Shown in pieces: positions 1-19,666 of a DNA stretch of 32,000 nucleotides; positions within the stretch are counted from its first letter, which is position 1; every line of letters starts with the position of its first letter. Under the pieces are notes generated by a model. The model was given only the letters and a program-made list of their open reading frames with translations. It made no database searches and was not told where the DNA came from. The translations under genes and the position numbers were made by a program. Source of the DNA: Promethearchaeia archaeon (GTDB taxonomy: Archaea > Asgardarchaeota > Lokiarchaeia > Sigyniarchaeales > SOKP01); NCBI GenBank assembly GCA_046497275.1, contig JAWOFX010000091.1, positions 1 to 32,000 on the forward strand. Reading direction: 5' to 3'.

Positions 1-33
1 AATACTGAAAATAAGTTTAACTAAATAATTATT

Positions 34-40
34 GTGAGGT
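34..40 (+). promoter_or_regulatory. Shine-Dalgarno-like motif GTGAGGT in front of ATG 44
   Basis: GTGAGGT at 34-40, followed by AAA and ATG (44-46). It resembles archaeal GGAGGTGA-type ribosome-binding sites and supports 44 rather than 115 as the start. Confidence 0.55.
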
Positions 41-43
41 AAA

Positions 44-354
44 ATGGCTGAAGAATTTGATGGCAAACATTGTTCTGAATGCGGTGGAGACTCTTTTAGA
101 ATTGCCCACGATGAATGGATGAGAATTTAAGCATTTCGCAAAAAATCATCAATCGAACATTCAGATTCGTGGAAAATGGACAATTGAAGATGTGTAATAA
201 TTGCGGGGCCAAATTTCTAGTCTGTGAGGAATGTGGAAATTTATACACAAGAGTGCATCCCGCATTAGAGACTTGGGAGGTTTCAGAGAAATGTCCTGTA
301 TGTGGGCATGTAGATCCCTCAGTAAAGGCTTGGGATGGAACTTCCCCAAGATAA
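44..354 (+). CDS. Small double zinc-ribbon protein (4 x CxxC), spliced CDS join(44..123,153..354), 93 aa: MAEEFDGKHCSECGGDSFRIAHDEWMSRTFRFVENGQLKMCNNCGAKFLVCEECGNLYTRVHPALETWEVSEKCPVCGHVDPSVKAWDGTSPR
   Basis: Manual translation: ATG 44 reads MAEEFDGKHCSECGGDSFRIAHDEWMRI then TAA (128-130). The tracked ORF 115..354 in another frame carries CNNC, CEEC and CPVC. Removing 124-152 joins them (80+202=282 nt, 94 codons) and gives four CxxC motifs. Confidence 0.8.
124..152 (+). other. Putative 29-nt bulge-helix-bulge (tRNA-endonuclease-type) intron in a protein-coding gene
   Basis: Central helix G118AUG121 pairs with C147AUC150. 3-nt bulges are A122GA124 and A151AU153. Inner helix A125UUU128/A143AAU146; outer pairs G117-C154 and U116-G155. 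Cutting after the second nt of each bulge excises 29 nt and restores the frame (ATG AG|T CGA = M S R). Confidence 0.75.
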
Positions 355-362
355 GACTAATC

Positions 363-380
363 TTTTTTTCCTTCTTATTT
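363..380 (+). terminator. T-rich archaeal terminator-like tract after the zinc-ribbon gene
   Basis: TTTTTTTCCTTCTTATTT starting 9 nt after the stop at 354. Confidence 0.4.
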
Positions 381-648
381 ATTATACAGGTATGTAAAAA
401 TTTAAATTCTTGAATTGTATTTGAGAATTAATTTTATTGTTCACTTGCTCTTTTTATTTTAGTTTTTAAGATTGAAATGAGAAATATAAAAAAAAATCAA
501 TCTATTTCGAGTGATCTTGAGTTTATCAAGAATAGAATAAAATTAACATAGGTCTCATGATTTTATTAATTAGGAGTAAAGAAAATTTAAATTAAATAAT
601 AACAATAAATGATAAAACGAAGCCTTATTAAAACTACAATCAAAGATT

Positions 649-1131
649 ATGAGTAAAAATAATAATATTAAAGTAGAAATTGCTTCACCAGAGCAAATTA
701 ATGCGCTAAAGGAGCTTACGAAACTATTAGTTGAAGGTTTGGGAGAAGAATTTGAGCCTAAAAGATTTGATTGGGGTATCAGAAGAAGATTGTTTGATCC
801 CCTTCAAAGGCACGGAATTTTAATAGCCACTGACGAAAGCAGTGGAGAAGTTGCGGGTATGATAATTGCTGAACTTCGTATTGATCCCTTTGGGAAATCT
901 GAAGGATATATAAAGCAATTTTTCTTAAAAGAGAATTATAGGGGAAGAGGTATAGGTCATACTCTTCTAAAGAAGGCATTAGAACATTTAAAGAAAATTC
1001 AAGTCGAAAAAGTCAAAGTGAATATTAGAGAACAAGCTAAACGCGCAGCTAATCTTTACGAGCAAATGAACTTTGAAAAACGATATGAAGTTCTCGAATT
1101 AGACCTTGAAAAAGATTATCCTAACAAATAA
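649..1131 (+). CDS. GNAT-family N-acetyltransferase
   Basis: Acetyl-CoA binding motif A (FFLKENYRGRGIGHTLL) and motif B-like NIREQAKRAANLYEQMNF; 160 aa. Confidence 0.85.
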   Translation: MSKNNNIKVEIASPEQINALKELTKLLVEGLGEEFEPKRFDWGIRRRLFDPLQRHGILIATDESSGEVAGMIIAELRIDPFGKSEGYIKQFFLKENYRGRGIGHTLLKKALEHLKKIQVEKVKVNIREQAKRAANLYEQMNFEKRYEVLELDLEKDYPNK

Positions 1132-1150
1132 GAAGTGTTGAATATTTTTT

Positions 1151-2134
1151 ATGAGCATTGATTTGGGAAGTCCTTGGGTTGAGAAATATAGACCAAAAGA
1201 TTTTAGTGAAATTGTTAGTCAAAATATTGCGGTAAATAACTTAAAATCATTTGTAAAAAGAAAATTTGATATGCCACATATGATTTTTACTGGTCCAGCG
1301 GGAACCGGAAAGACAAGTACTGCTCTAATAATCGCAAATAAATTACTCAAAGGGGAAAAATATTATCGAAATGTATTAGAATTAAATGCTTCTGATACTG
1401 TAAGAATGAAATTTGTCAGAGAAAAACTCAATGATTTTGTAAATCAAAATATGATCATAACAGAAAATGAGTTGAAAATAGTAATTTTAGACGAAGCTGA
1501 TAATATTCCAAAAACAGTTCAGCAAACATTAAGAAGGATAATTGAGAGTGCCCCTACTAATGTGAAGTTCATACTTATGTGTAATTATATTAACCAGATA
1601 ATCGATCCAATCGTATCAAGATGTGCTGTTTTTAGATTTGTAAGCCTTCCTAAAGAAAAAATAGTAGAAAAATTAAAACTTATCGCGAAAAAAGAGAATT
1701 TATCTATTCCAAAAGAAAGGGAAGAAGAAGTTTTTGATACTCTATTTTTTATCTCCTCAGGCGATTTAAGAAAAGCTATTAACACCCTTCAGATGGCAGT
1801 TTCGCTGGAATTAATTAAAAGTCTTAATGTAAATGAACTTCTAAAAATCTCTGGATTTATCGAAAACACTGTGTTTGAAGAACTCAGAGAAGCATTGTTA
1901 AAAAGTGATTTTCTAAAAACAAGGACAATCTTTAATTCCATAGAATATTTAGATAGTCGTAATTTTATTCGTCAATTATTAAAGATTATCCCAGATTTAA
2001 AAGATTTAAGTACTATTAGAAAATCTCACCTTATTGCTTATTTTGGTGAAATAGATTTCAAAATAAGCCAAGGCGGGGATGAGGAGATACAATTAACAGC
2101 TCTTTTAGCTTCAATTGTTTCTAATAGCAAATAA
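1151..2134 (+). CDS. rfcS: Replication factor C small subunit (catalytically canonical)
   Basis: PWVEKYRP, Walker A GPAGTGKT, ELNASD, Walker B ILDEAD, SRC motif (IVSRCAVF), C-terminal collar motif EEIQLTALL. Confidence 0.95.
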   Translation: MSIDLGSPWVEKYRPKDFSEIVSQNIAVNNLKSFVKRKFDMPHMIFTGPAGTGKTSTALIIANKLLKGEKYYRNVLELNASDTVRMKFVREKLNDFVNQNMIITENELKIVILDEADNIPKTVQQTLRRIIESAPTNVKFILMCNYINQIIDPIVSRCAVFRFVSLPKEKIVEKLKLIAKKENLSIPKEREEEVFDTLFFISSGDLRKAINTLQMAVSLELIKSLNVNELLKISGFIENTVFEELREALLKSDFLKTRTIFNSIEYLDSRNFIRQLLKIIPDLKDLSTIRKSHLIAYFGEIDFKISQGGDEEIQLTALLASIVSNSK

Positions 2135-2161: not shown

Positions 2162-3208
2162 ATGGTAAATAATTCTCCTATATGGAGGTTAAAATATCAA
2201 CCAAAAAATCTAGATGAAATAACTGGAAGAGAAAATACTATCTCACGGTTGAAGGAAATAATTCAAAAAGGGAACTTTCCACATCTACTACTCACCGGAG
2301 CAGAAGGTATAGGGAAAACAACCATAGCACGATTATTTGCTAAAGAGTTTTTGGGGCGCTATTATGATGCAAACTTTAAATTGGTCTATGCTGATGTAGG
2401 ATTAACACAAGAAGAGAGGGCGCAAGCACGCTCAGATGCATATATTTCTACCAGCAGAATTGGAAGTATGGCAGGGAAAAAAATTACTACCCCTGCTTTT
2501 ATTCAAATAAAAATAAAACCATTTGTTCAATTAAAAGCAATTGGAGACATTCCATTTAAAATTCTTGTTGTTAAAAATTTTGAGAGATTAGGATCTGATC
2601 AACAAGGCTTCAGAAGATTGATGGAAATATATGGATCAAACTGTAGAATGATACTAATTACTACGAAGATTTCAGGTATAATTGATCCAATTGTATCAAG
2701 ATGTCAGCTTTTTTTAATTCCACAAATAAATTATAATAATTTTGAAAATTTAATAAATCAGATTGCTAAATCTGAATCACTGGAATTAGGACAAGGAGTT
2801 GTAGAATTTCTTTTTCGATTATCAAAAGGTAAGATCGCAAATGCTATAGATTTATTACAATTATGTAGTACTACAGGGAAAAAAGTCGATTTAGAGTCTC
2901 TTTATAAAAACTCAAAAAATTTTGAAAATCAAGAGATAAGAGATCTATTAAAATTAACCTTTACTGAAGATTTTAAAGAAATAAGAGAACATTTTAGAGA
3001 AATTTTATCAGAATACAAATATAATGTTCATGAATTTTTCATAAAAATTTTAAGTGAAATCCATAAACTTCCAATTTCTCAATATGGAAGAGCAAGACTG
3101 ATTAATATGATTGCAGATTCTGATTTTAGATCTCTTGATGGATTAGATGACGATATTCAGATATCTGCTTTATTGACAAAATTATCCGAATTTAGTGAAT
3201 ATTTGTGA
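2162..3208 (+). CDS. Second, divergent RFC small-subunit paralog
   Basis: IWRLKYQP, NFPHLLLTGAEGIGKT, IIDPIVSRCQ and DDIQISALL align with RFC-S. Walker B is replaced by VVKNFE and there is an insertion of about 27 aa. Confidence 0.85.
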   Translation: MVNNSPIWRLKYQPKNLDEITGRENTISRLKEIIQKGNFPHLLLTGAEGIGKTTIARLFAKEFLGRYYDANFKLVYADVGLTQEERAQARSDAYISTSRIGSMAGKKITTPAFIQIKIKPFVQLKAIGDIPFKILVVKNFERLGSDQQGFRRLMEIYGSNCRMILITTKISGIIDPIVSRCQLFLIPQINYNNFENLINQIAKSESLELGQGVVEFLFRLSKGKIANAIDLLQLCSTTGKKVDLESLYKNSKNFENQEIRDLLKLTFTEDFKEIREHFREILSEYKYNVHEFFIKILSEIHKLPISQYGRARLINMIADSDFRSLDGLDDDIQISALLTKLSEFSEYL

Positions 3209-3212
3209 TGAT

Positions 3213-4571
3213 ATGAGTAATAATTCAAATGAACCATGGGTTGAAAAATACAGACCCAAAAGTATTAAGGAAATGGCACTTCCGATGGCAAAACTGGGGA
3301 GGCAGCGAGTTAATGTTGCTGAAAAGTTAAAAGAATTCATACATAATTTTTTTGAAGAAATTAAAAAGATAAATGAAAAAAACCAACAGATTAGATCTTT
3401 TAACAGAACTGCCACTGAAAAACAACAGAAAGAAGAGATATCTCTCCCCCCAGAAAAAGCAGCGGTACTATTGGAAGGACAACCTGGAATTGGAAAGACC
3501 TCAATTGTATATGCTCTTGCAAATGATTTAAATATGGAAGTTATAGAAACGAATGCTTCTGATACTAGAACAAGAGACAGTTTGGAAGCAAAATTGAAAG
3601 AGACTTCAAAATCAAGGGGCATTATGGATTTCATAAGTGAAAAGAAGAAAAAATTACTCCTTATAGATGAAATCGATGGGATATACGGAAATAAAGACAG
3701 AGGCGCGGTACCAGCTATATTAGATATAGTTAAACAAACACAATTTCCGATAATAATGTGCTCCAATGAATATAAATCAAATCTTCAATCTCTCTATAAT
3801 ATAATTCCAAGATATGAAGTACATCCTCTTCCCAAGGACGAGATGATTAAAATTGCCGCTAAAATTATGAAAAATGAAAATGTAAAAGAGATTACTAAGG
3901 AGGATTTAGAACTCATTATTGAGAGAAATGGAGGAGATTTAAGAGGAGTAATTAACGATCTTCAAGCATTGAGTAAGGGTGAGAGAAGTTCTGACGAAGA
4001 AAGAAAGGACATGATTTATTCCTTCCATCGCGATACTACAGAAGAGATATTTGGTATTATCCGTGATTTGTTTCAAGAAGTCGAAACTTTAGAGCAGGCA
4101 AGAGAACTTACCAATAAATCGGATGTTGATTACAACTTCTTATACAAATGGATCAATCAAAATATACCATCATTTATTACTTATAAGGATGAATTAGAAA
4201 ACGCTTATGAAAACCTCGCAGAGGCAGATAAGATTTTTGGAAGAATTAGAAGAAATATGGAGTGGTCATTATTACCTTATTTCTACGATCTTTTTGCTGG
4301 AGGGGTTGTTTTGGTTCAGAAAAAAAGTCGATCTAAGGGATTCAGACCAGTTAATTTTCCCAGATATAGTAGTTCAGCAGGAATGTCTTTGAGTAATGCT
4401 GAAAAAAGTCTCTATCAAAAAATACGGCAAGTCTATGAAATATCACAAACTGAAGCATTAAGAGATTTCCTTCCATTTCTTAAAGTCTTATCAAGTTTAT
4501 CCAGAAGGAATCTAAAAGAAATTAGCGATTGGTTAGATTTAACTGCTAAAGAAAAAAATTTGTTAAAATAG
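3213..4571 (+). CDS. rfcL: Replication factor C large subunit
   Basis: PWVEKYRPK, GQPGIGKT, ETNASD, LLIDEIDG, GDLRGVIND, no SRC motif. Start placed at ATG 3213, 4 nt after the upstream stop, instead of 3195. Confidence 0.92.
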   Translation: MSNNSNEPWVEKYRPKSIKEMALPMAKLGRQRVNVAEKLKEFIHNFFEEIKKINEKNQQIRSFNRTATEKQQKEEISLPPEKAAVLLEGQPGIGKTSIVYALANDLNMEVIETNASDTRTRDSLEAKLKETSKSRGIMDFISEKKKKLLLIDEIDGIYGNKDRGAVPAILDIVKQTQFPIIMCSNEYKSNLQSLYNIIPRYEVHPLPKDEMIKIAAKIMKNENVKEITKEDLELIIERNGGDLRGVINDLQALSKGERSSDEERKDMIYSFHRDTTEEIFGIIRDLFQEVETLEQARELTNKSDVDYNFLYKWINQNIPSFITYKDELENAYENLAEADKIFGRIRRNMEWSLLPYFYDLFAGGVVLVQKKSRSKGFRPVNFPRYSSSAGMSLSNAEKSLYQKIRQVYEISQTEALRDFLPFLKVLSSLSRRNLKEISDWLDLTAKEKNLLK

Positions 4572-4843: not shown

Positions 4844-5476
4844 ATGACAGAAGAAGAAGAATTAGATGAAGTTGAAAAAGAAGCACACATGAATAAGAGA
4901 TCCCAATTATTATTAAAAGTAATCGGTGCCGCTATCTTTGGAGCCCTTTCAGCAGTGAGTTACCCTCTTTTGAAACCTTTAATAGATGCAACGCGAGTAC
5001 CTCAAGGATTAGCGCTTTTTGATCCTATCTCAATTATTTGGGTAACTTGTTTTTTAATCTTCGGTCCATATGCCGGAGTCTTATGTTGTTTAATAGGTTT
5101 CGTGACTTTAATACCATTTGATCAATCTATTCCGATTATTGCTCCCTTTTTAAAATTTTCTGCAACTATTCCCTTAATCATTATCCCGACTTTAGTTTTA
5201 AGATTATATAAGAAAAGAGAGAATATTAATAGAAGTCAGAAACTATTAAAACCATTTAATTATTTCGTTTCAGGTGCTTTATCAATTGTGGTCAGAATAA
5301 TGGTAATGATTTTACTCAATATTATAGTATATTTGGCATTCTTTGGAAGAGCTGGTTTGGAAGCATGGTTAGTCTTAATTGTTATTGTAAATGCTATTAC
5401 TAGTGTCTGGGATTTATTTGTACCTTATATAATAATTAAGGGTCTAAATATATACAAAGAATTTCAAATATGGTAA
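4844..5476 (+). CDS. ECF-type transporter substrate-binding (S) component, substrate unknown
   Basis: About 210 aa, roughly six hydrophobic segments, AIFGALSAV and FDPISIIWVTCFLIFGPYAGVL patterns typical of S components. ATG 4844 preferred over TTG 4835. Confidence 0.65.
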   Translation: MTEEEELDEVEKEAHMNKRSQLLLKVIGAAIFGALSAVSYPLLKPLIDATRVPQGLALFDPISIIWVTCFLIFGPYAGVLCCLIGFVTLIPFDQSIPIIAPFLKFSATIPLIIIPTLVLRLYKKRENINRSQKLLKPFNYFVSGALSIVVRIMVMILLNIIVYLAFFGRAGLEAWLVLIVIVNAITSVWDLFVPYIIIKGLNIYKEFQIW

Positions 5477-17758: not shown

Positions 17759-19666
17759 TTCATACTCCGCATCTACTACATCATCTTGACCTGTAGCTCG
17801 ACGGTATTGTTCCTCTTCAATCTCATCTTGGGTCTTTTTCGGTCCGCCAGAACTATATGTAGATCCAGGTGTTCCACCCATACCTCCAGGTGGAGCTCCT
17901 TGATATGCTTGACCGGGTTGTTGCCCTTGACCATACATTCTTGAGGAAACTTCATGTAGAGCTTGTTGTAGTGCTTCTATTTTGTTTTCTATGTTCTGTT
18001 TATCGTCAGTTTGAAGTGCATTCTTCAAATCTTCGATTTTTTGATCAATTTTATCTTTGAGATCTCCGACCATTTCTTCATTTTCCCGAAGGATCTTTTC
18101 AGCTTGATATACGATTGCCTCTCCACGATTTCGAACTTCTATAAGTTCTTTGAACTTTTTGTCTTCTTCTGCATGTCGTTCGGCTTCCCTGACTTTCTCT
18201 TCAATTTCTTCATCACCCATCTTAGTCGATGCGGTGATTGTAATTGATTGAGATTGTCCAGTAGCCTTATCTTCAGCTGTGACATTTAGGATACCGTCAG
18301 CATCAATATCGAAAGTGACTTTAATTTGAGGCACTCCTCGTGGAGCTGGTGGAATTCCACTCAGATGAAATTTACCAAGTGAAATATTATCTCTCGCTTT
18401 TGGTCGTTCTCCTTGTAGTACATGAATCTCAACTGTATTTTGATTATCGGCAGCAGTTGTGAAGGTTTCTGTAGCTTGTGTTGGAATGGTAGTATTTCTG
18501 TCAATTAATTTTGTAAAGACTCCACCTAATGTTTCAACTCCTAAAGACAATGGAGTCACATCCAACAATAATAGATCTTCTACTTCACCGGTTAATACTC
18601 CTCCTTGAATGGCAGCACCCATCGCAACACATTCCATCGGATCGATACCGCGTTCTGGTTTCGCTCCTAAGAATTCCTTGAATTTTTCTTGGACACTTGG
18701 CATTCTGGTTGGACCTCCAACAAGAATAATTTTATCGACTTCATTGCTTTTCATTCCTGCATCTTGAATAGCCTTTTTAATTGGACCCTCTAACCTCTTT
18801 AATACAGGGTCTATCAACTGTTCTAATTTTGCTCTCGTAATCTCCATGTTTAGATGTTTTGGACCAGAATCTGTTGCTGTGACATAGGGTAAATTAATCT
18901 CAGTTTTTAATACTGTAGATAATTCGATCTTTGCCTTTTCAGCAGCTTCTTTGACTCTTTGTAGTGCCATTTTATCGTTTCGTAAATCAACACCTTCTTG
19001 TTTCTTGAATTCCTCTACGATGTATTCAACGAGTTTGTCGTCCATATCACGACCGCCTAATTGTGTATCTCCAGCAGTGGAAATAACTTCAAATACTCGA
19101 TCGTCCATTTCCATTATAGTGACATCAAATGTACCGCCTCCAAGATCTAATACTGCAATGTTTAAATGTTGTCCTTTTTTATCCAAACCAAATGCTACGG
19201 CTGCAGCGGTCGGTTCGTTAATTAATCGGCGAACATTTAATCCGGCGATCTTACCAGCGTCCTTGGTTGCTTGTCTCTGATTGTCGTTAAAATAGGCTGG
19301 AACAGTTATTATCGCATCTGTGACTTCCTCTCCTAAATAGTCGCTGGCATCTTGCTTAATCTTTCTTAGGATCATAGCAGAGATTTCTTGTGGAGAATAT
19401 TCCTTCCCGTCAATTTCAACGGTGTATGAGGTTCCCATTTTTCTTTTGATTCCTGTAATGGTTCGCTCAGGATTTGAAATTGCTTGTCGTCTGGCAGGTT
19501 CTCCTACTAATCTTTGCCCATCCTTAGTGAATGCTACGACTGATGGAAATGCTTTACCGTATAAAGTAACACCTTCCTTACTCGGAATAATCTCAGGATG
19601 GCCACCACTTAATATAGCGGCTGCGGAGTTGCTTGTTCCTAGGTCAATACCAATTATTTTTCCCAT
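17756..19666 (-). CDS. dnaK: Chaperone DnaK (Hsp70)
   Basis: [51 protein letters not shown]-terminal DVVDAEYE. Lacks the ~24-aa diderm insert. Confidence 0.98.

Follow-up and report, generated by a model that had tools for sequence, protein, structure and literature searches.

Known BHB introns and the window element

The closest described counterpart of the element treated here is the bulge-helix-bulge (BHB) intron in the cbf5 pre-mRNA of Crenarchaeota (Watanabe 2002; Yokobori 2009, PMC2738675). The element itself is an insert of 29 nucleotides (nt) at positions 124–152 of "the window", the whole stretch of 32,000 nt that was analyzed (JAWOFX010000091.1, positions 1–32,000; genome of a Lokiarchaeon, Asgard). 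It interrupts a small gene at the 5′ end of the window, the product of which is a double zinc-ribbon protein of 93 amino acids (aa) conserved in Lokiarchaeia. This insert is very probably an archaeal BHB (tRNA-type) intron inside a coding sequence, because structure and covariation, the colinearity of the spliced product, purifying selection, the splicing enzymes encoded by the genome and comparable inserts in its essential genes all point to it. As of 2020, cbf5 was the only coding-sequence case beside a Haloferax intron in a 5′ untranslated region (PMC7714728). Full-text literature searching turned up no paper that describes BHB introns in protein-coding genes of Asgard archaea; the window element would be a case of the cbf5 mechanism in a new gene and phylum, unpublished as far as found.

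The cbf5 and window introns are both short, lie in coding sequence, have a (partly relaxed) BHB motif and are predicted to be cut between bulge bases 2 and 3. Both are taken for frameshifts by gene callers, both have a patchy presence that implies gain and loss, and both occur in hosts with a heteromeric splicing endonuclease (EndA). The cbf5 intron sits at the codon of the catalytic Asp in Crenarchaeota, whereas the window's lies in a 93-aa double zinc ribbon in Asgard archaea (Lokiarchaeia). Unlike cbf5, this one tiny gene has three insertion sites, and intron presence varies within a genus. Splicing of cbf5 is backed by cDNA and in vitro cleavage data; that of the window is predicted from sequence. 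Membership in the cbf5 intron lineage was rejected, the host gene being a double zinc ribbon and not cbf5; the two introns would work alike without being homologous.

Non-canonical BHB introns in the tRNAs of Asgard archaea and Thermoproteales share with the window element the motif, the size range, the presumed enzymes and repeated gains (PMC11291895; bioRxiv 10.64898/2026.10.13.758758; PMC5829648). Unlike them, the window intron is hosted by an mRNA, so that excision must keep the reading frame, and its exon pairing comes from codons (GAUG of Trp-Met or Asp-Glu, CGN Arg). The BHB intron of Haloferax volcanii HVO_1309 is likewise an mRNA substrate of the archaeal splicing endonuclease, and its excised piece is circular (PMC7714728). 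Unlike the window's, it lies in the untranslated leader and leaves the coding sequence uninterrupted. In eukaryotes, HAC1/XBP1 mRNA splicing is stress-regulated and uses a paired stem-loop motif, with cleavage by Ire1 and ligation by RtcB or Trl1. The likeness lies in the spliceosome-independent removal of a short mRNA intron by an endonuclease and a tRNA ligase, with a change of reading frame.

Reading frames and structure of the window allele

The frame that opens at ATG 44–46 runs through 26 codons to ...AHDEWM, continues with AGA and AUU and ends at TAA 128–130; up to this stop it translates as MAEEFDGKHCSECGGDSFRIAHDEWM-RI, an N-terminal peptide of 28 aa. Three further CxxC motifs lie in another frame, the open reading frame (ORF) 115–354 (79 aa). 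Excision of 124–152 deletes the stop, joins AG|U (Ser) and restores the frame, and the resulting 93-aa product has four CxxC motifs and is colinear with its orthologs. The original prediction had described this interrupted frame, its repair and a set of base pairs and bulges; the reading frames confirm the first two, and each of the pairs and bulges is found in the sequence. The features of the allele are as follows, where site 1 denotes the insertion site of the window.

36–40, + strand: Shine-Dalgarno-like GAGGT, 3 nt before the start codon, read from the sequence.
44–123, + strand: exon 1, with the start codon, the first CxxC knuckle (CSEC), ...AHDEWM and the AG of the junction codon; aligns to ortholog residues 1–27.
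116–117, + strand: 5′ strand UG of the exon helix h, partner CG 154–155 (U116-G155, G117-C154); U-G and G-C are invariant in 15 alleles.
118–121, + strand: exon strand GAUG of the central helix H, partner 147–150; 100% paired across 15 site-1 alleles, where any change on one strand alone gives G-U.
122–124, + strand: 5′ bulge AGA, predicted cut G123/A124 by the published cleavage rule.
124–152, + strand: putative 29-nt BHB intron, containing the in-frame stop TAA 128–130; predicted EndA cuts after 123 and after 152.
125–146, + strand: intron stem-loop h′, AUUU 125–128/AAAU 143–146 plus apical GC 131–132/GC 138–139; seven aligned inner pairs are changed on both sides across alleles.
147–150, + strand: intron strand CAUC of H (L003 CAUU, L004 CGUC), partner 118–121.
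151–153, + strand: 3′ bulge AAU, predicted cut A152/U153 by the published cleavage rule.
153–354, + strand: exon 2, with the U (third base) of the junction Ser codon, RTFRFVENGQLK, three CxxC knuckles and the stop TAA 352–354.
154–155, + strand: 3′ strand CG of the exon helix h, the first two bases of a CGN Arg codon.

Read from 5′ to 3′, one strand of the exon helix comes first, then the 4 exon nucleotides of H with the 5′ bulge, the intron stem, the 4 intron nucleotides of H with the 3′ bulge, and finally the other strand of the exon helix. The central helix has 4 base pairs (bp), the two 3-nt bulges lie on opposite strands, and the exon strand is 5′ of the first bulge. Both flanking helices reach at least 2 bp (h′ 4 bp, h 2 bp), which places the motif in class hBHBh′, and a cut after the second bulge base yields the product that is colinear with uninterrupted orthologs. 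This geometry agrees with the published definition of a BHB, and the published cleavage rule puts the cut between bulge bases 2 and 3. A longer alternative exon helix (UGAAUG 112–117/CAUUCA 158–163) is present in the constrained fold.

In the proposed mechanism, the pre-mRNA would fold so that exon GAUG (118–121) pairs with intron CAUC (147–150), flanked by the bulges AGA and AAU, the intron stem and the short exon helix. EndA would then cut after the second base of each bulge, and RtcB would ligate the exons, with the 29-mer probably circularized. The mature mRNA would read ...HDEWM-S-RTFRF... and encode the full four-CxxC protein. From the sequence comparisons, we infer that this cleavage and ligation take place in vivo.

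A self-splicing group I or group II intron was considered and rejected: the ribozyme core of such introns comprises hundreds of nucleotides, whereas the insert has only 29, and a search of the whole window against Rfam gives no family match. ARAGORN likewise reports no RNA gene there. A BLAST search with the 29-mer finds no second copy in its own genome, so the insert is not a repeated element at the sequence level.

The insert as an addition to the family

A search with the exon 2 protein retrieves Lokiarchaeota/Promethearchaeota proteins of 87–94 aa that have an N-terminal CxxC. The nearest named relatives are metagenome-assembled genomes (MAGs) of "Candidatus Lokiarchaeota" and "Promethearchaeota", in line with the Asgard host that had been proposed from the letters alone. 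Uninterrupted orthologs read contiguously DEWM(K/S)RTFRFVE(N/K)GQL, with a single residue at the position of the junction codon. One of them, P0010, is exactly HDEWMSRTFRF. The original prediction had named such intron-less proteins (HDEWMxRTFRF) as support, and the residues ENLSISQKIIN, encoded by the 79-aa frame, as a sign to the contrary if any genuine ortholog contained them; the former exist, and the latter occur in no ortholog.

Six-frame searches place the gene in 133 of the 161 genomes of the class. It is interrupted in nine of these, the window's genome included, and within the window's own genus it is uninterrupted in 5 of 7 genomes. Since the orthologs are mostly uninterrupted, the 29 nt are an insertion relative to the family.

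As a separate observation, a second, diverged zinc-ribbon copy occurs in G006, G018, G033, G045, G108, G112, G116 and G157–G160, mostly in tandem and directly adjacent.

Sister alleles and selection on both exons

Four independent assemblies share the window's insert, at 29 nt in L002 and L003 and at 28 nt in L004 and L042; the shorter alleles have one A fewer, on the loop side of the stem. The frame offset downstream tracks the insert length (29 vs 28 nt), and excision restores the frame in each of the five alleles. The two changes in the intron strand of the central helix, CAUU (L003) and CGUC (L004), retain the pairing as G-U. An assembly or sequencing artefact would be conceivable for a sequence taken from a MAG, the more so as public contigs leave positions 1–170 of the window uncovered; since the insert recurs, with point differences and a 1-nt indel, in independent NCBI, JGI and GTDB assemblies, this explanation is almost certainly wrong.

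The five spliced coding sequences have ratios of nonsynonymous to synonymous substitution (dN/dS) of 0.016–0.039, with dS up to 1.7. The exon 1 protein is identical in all five diverged alleles, the nucleotide differences being all synonymous, and the RTFRFVENGQLK protein is unchanged in the 28-nt alleles, again with synonymous substitutions only. Exons 1 and 2 are thus under purifying selection in the spliced frame.

These alleles also bear on the idea of a split or truncated gene, in which no splicing occurs and the 28-aa peptide is translated apart from a second product, either the 79-aa ORF or something shorter, or the downstream part is made alone. ATG 115 does open a 79-aa frame over all of exon 2 in the window, L002 and L003, and gene callers annotate it. 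In the 28-nt alleles L004 and L042, however, the ATG that corresponds to 115 is not in the exon 2 frame; RTFRF has a stop ahead of it, and the earliest start after this stop is the Met of LKMC, yet RTFRFVENGQLK is conserved. In other lineages, 30-nt inserts that keep the frame but carry one or two stops yield no 79-aa-like ORF, the ENLSISQKIIN residues are absent from orthologs, and selection on exon 1 is purifying in the very frame that goes on into exon 2. The two halves are very unlikely to be translated separately. Public annotation of the sister alleles consists of a 79-aa gene call at NCBI and 61-, 54- and 28-aa calls at JGI, so the mis-annotation as a 79-aa ORF that had been foreseen for the BHB intron is indeed found.

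Recurrent inserts at three sites and covariation

Among 112 gene-carrying loci from relatives and metagenome contigs, 23 are interrupted (19 distinct sequences). Their inserts are 28–31 nt long, comprise at least 10 unrelated sequences and fall at three sites; all 23 loci have a 4/4 central helix with two 3-nt bulges. Insert boundaries come from a motif-free census, in which the excision was chosen for best alignment to intron-less proteins (length exact, position ±2 nt). The BHB register lies inside the census range at every locus and is the sole 4/4-helix register, except that L128 has a second, weak one. When the window insert is shuffled 20,000 times, 0.33% of the shuffles form a strict BHB no more than ±2 nt from the boundaries set by colinearity; the share is 0.2–2.3% for the other strict-rule inserts, and site 3, which follows the relaxed rule only, gives 0.4%.

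Site 1 lies after GAUGA(A/G) of W-M and is used by 17 alleles with at least six unrelated inserts. In these, GAUG pairs with CAU(C/U), the bulges are 3 nt, the exon helix is 2–3 bp and the inner stem 2–8 bp. In 12 of the 17 alleles, a Lys codon (AA|A or AA|G) is obtained with the BHB register alone, and Lys is what the consensus of intron-less orthologs has at the junction; with neighboring registers, the residue would be Asn or Ile. Site 2, located 6 nt upstream of site 1, follows GAUGA(A/G) of D-E and falls between Glu and Trp; its alleles (L038, L039, L062 and L040) belong to four genomes of one other genus (g11). Here, the central helix is GAUG/CAUU in L038 but GACG/CGUU in L062, so that C-G stands in place of U-A, by way of the synonymous Asp codon change GAU→GAC. 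Site 3 (PALE|xWEV; L041 = G069:C13, PALE|SWEV; and L124) holds a 29-nt insert with AAA bulges and a 6-bp exon helix, and its BHB is the minimum free energy (MFE) structure. The palindrome CUAG furnishes both strands of its central helix, and an exact 8-nt direct repeat, CUAGAAAG, flanks the insert.

It may be added that in GAU-GAA-UGG-AUG-AAA the same exon word, GAUGA(A/G), provides the central-helix strand at sites 1 and 2, which looks as if an intron had slid or re-inserted.

To assess covariation, the 15 distinct site-1 sequences were aligned with MAFFT. In this set, 88.6% of cells are paired, against 32–45% with the partners slid, and double changes are seen at 7 of 7 inner pairs. The covariation score is 0.337 vs 0.136 for shuffles, and none of 500 shuffles reaches it. 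What is conserved at site 1 is the structure and not the sequence: different inserts keep the BHB by compensatory change, a pattern that the original prediction had named as support. The locus is a clean Asgard case whose natural "mutants" (different inserts, two lengths, three sites) act as a compensatory-mutation series.

The Arg codon after the junction, which supplies a strand of the exon helix in site-1 alleles, is CGN in 17/17 site-1 intron alleles; intron-less loci have 42 AGR and 12 CGN. Only 3 of 5 independent pairs are concordant (p about 0.25), and the association of CGN with site-1 introns is suggestive only.

Translational recoding might also carry a ribosome across such a gap, either by bypassing 28–31 nt as in phage T4 gene 60 or by frameshifting. 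A stop just past the take-off region, a hairpin in the gap and, in some alleles (e.g. L090), an identical AAA codon at both edges would suit this model. In the window, however, the codons before the gap (AUG, AGA, AUU) differ from the codon before the resume site (AAU), and L036 is likewise mismatched (AAU/UUU vs AUA). Moreover, gaps of 28, 29, 30 and 31 nt with stops fit no single frameshift, and what is conserved is BHB geometry, not take-off/landing pairs. Recoding has very little chance of being the explanation, and a gene 60-type bypass in particular was rejected, as neither the window nor L036 has matched flanking codons.

Splicing enzymes and other interrupted genes in the genome

The host genome (98.9% complete) encodes both a splicing endonuclease and an RtcB-type ligase: two EndA paralogs (C46:30059–30664 and C168:8004–8627), both of which contain the two Pfam domains of the enzyme, as well as two RtcB genes; all matches exceed the Pfam cut-offs. 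In the translated sequences, the catalytic residues Tyr, His and Lys can be read in one EndA paralog, and the His is missing from the other. Such a pair, one catalytic and one apparently structural, fits an (αβ)2 enzyme, and Asgard EndA is reported to be of the broad-specificity (αβ)2 type with an L1 loop (PMC5829648).

Asgard tRNA genes are reported to be heavily interrupted (PMC11291895; bioRxiv 10.64898/2026.10.13.758758; PMC5829648). In this nearly complete genome, ARAGORN detects 19 tRNA genes only, which is consistent with such interruption; most tRNA genes of the genome are probably interrupted at non-canonical positions.

Five further genes of the same genome were examined for inserts: EF-1α, RNA polymerase A′, TFS and two cold-shock genes.

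C83:19114–19145, + strand: EF-1α, P-loop split GHIDHG|KSTMMG; 32-nt BHB insert, AUGG/CCAU helix, bulges UAU and AAA.
C83:1644–1673, + strand: RNA polymerase A′ (the genome's only copy), GHFGH|IELARP; 30-nt in-frame insert with TAA, GGGC/GCCC helix, 9-bp inner stem, no exon helix.
C130:8745–8774, + strand: TFS; 30-nt frame-restoring BHB insert.
C121:8514–8542, − strand: cold-shock gene; 29-nt frame-restoring BHB insert.
C20:~17895–17925, + strand: second cold-shock gene; 30-nt in-frame insert with two stops and a 3′ bulge of at least 4 nt (not canonical).

For the second cold-shock gene, the standard cut rule fails to give the expected product. Essential genes such as EF-1α and RNA polymerase A′ cannot be pseudogenes; therefore, the organism must remove such inserts. 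The same genes bear on whether the zinc-ribbon gene is a pseudogene, inactivated by a random small insertion and now decaying. Its genomic sequence does show a premature stop and a frameshift, and it is a small gene of unknown function. Insert-bearing alleles nevertheless have dN/dS of 0.02–0.04 over dS > 1 and no further lesions; the inserts are all 28–31 nt, BHB-shaped and present at no fewer than eight separate places on the gene tree; and the same kind of insert occurs in essential single-copy genes of the genome. Decay is highly improbable.

Homology-free genome-wide scans for BHB excisions that merge open frames gave 5310 candidates vs 5280–5426 in controls, and 188 vs 190–221, the controls having the 3′ cut shifted by 1–2 nt. 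With inner stems of at least 6 bp, there is a weak excess (129 vs 104–117). As the scan counts equal those of the controls, a homology-free method cannot count the introns of this genome.

RNA data and points against a BHB intron

Salt-lake metatranscriptomes hold the window's strain. Public contigs of three salt-lake metatranscriptome runs and one DNA run were aligned to window positions 1–1200; they span 171–401 and 439–1200 and start at 171–179 in RNA and DNA alike. Metatranscriptome contigs from two studies overlap exon 2 (171–361).

Several points count against a BHB intron at 124–152. These contigs begin downstream of the junction and hence give no view of a spliced transcript or an excised circle. 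The MFE fold of the window element (−7.7 kcal/mol, z = −0.14) is in a slipped register, and the BHB conformer lies 2.7 kcal/mol higher; the exon helix next to the bulge has only 2 bp (U-G, G-C), and the BHB is thermodynamically weak. The junction codon is Ser in the window and Lys in the majority of orthologs. Some members of the insert set are relaxed BHB motifs: site 2 alleles have an exon helix of only 1 bp, and site 3 has an extra unpaired A opposite the 3′ bulge and no adjacent outer helix. For its part, a thermodynamic fold on its own is no proof and is uninformative for so short an AU-rich motif, and Ser is common at the junction position among intron-less orthologs. Taken with the comparative evidence, which supports the original BHB-intron interpretation, these points leave such an intron as the very probable identity of the insert.

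Gain, loss and possible spread of the putative introns

A tree of the spliced coding sequences requires the intron state to change at least 10 times. The intron of L119 (L119:96–125) is 30/30 identical to that of L036 (L036:238–267) and to that of L037; the host coding sequences are only 70–72% identical, and L119 belongs to a different clade of the gene tree from L036/L037. L098 and L103, by comparison, are 87% identical in gene and in intron alike. The identical introns of L119 and L036 suggest lateral intron transfer or gene conversion, and the 8-nt direct repeat at site 3 resembles a target-site duplication. BHB mini-introns appear to move, given three sites in one 93-codon gene, the many state changes, an identical intron in 70%-identical hosts and this direct repeat. 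It is fairly likely that a Lokiarchaeal lineage, and probably Lokiarchaeia more widely, carries BHB mini-introns of ~30 nt that repeatedly invade protein-coding genes, among them essential ones such as those for EF-1α, RNA polymerase A′ and TFS.

If such a mini-intron population exists, routine mRNA splicing by tRNA-splicing enzymes would belong to the way in which prokaryotes closely related to eukaryotes express their genes. Confirmation of the window intron would mean that the gene catalogues of Asgard archaea contain a systematic error at every such insert, and that mRNAs in archaea are able to bear and propagate introns even in essential genes. It would also make it possible to study, in the closest prokaryotic relatives of eukaryotes, how introns of protein genes are gained and lost and may spread laterally.

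Host protein and neighboring genes

Pfam gives only weak, generic Zn_ribbon matches for the host protein, and the best E-value in a PDB sequence search is no lower than 0.03. Its AlphaFold model has a predicted local distance difference test (pLDDT) score of 71; Foldseek with this model finds nothing specific in PDB and, in AFDB, only the protein's own family and generic double zinc ribbons.

The AFDB entry A0A524F3U7, a 68-aa "uncharacterized protein", is 87% identical to ortholog residues 26–93 and is probably an exon-2-only mis-annotation of an intron-bearing allele.

The neighbors of the zinc-ribbon gene are a GNAT acetyltransferase gene and an RFC small-subunit gene. Two long ORFs on the + strand of the window, at 2162–3208 and 3195–4571, overlap by 14 nt.
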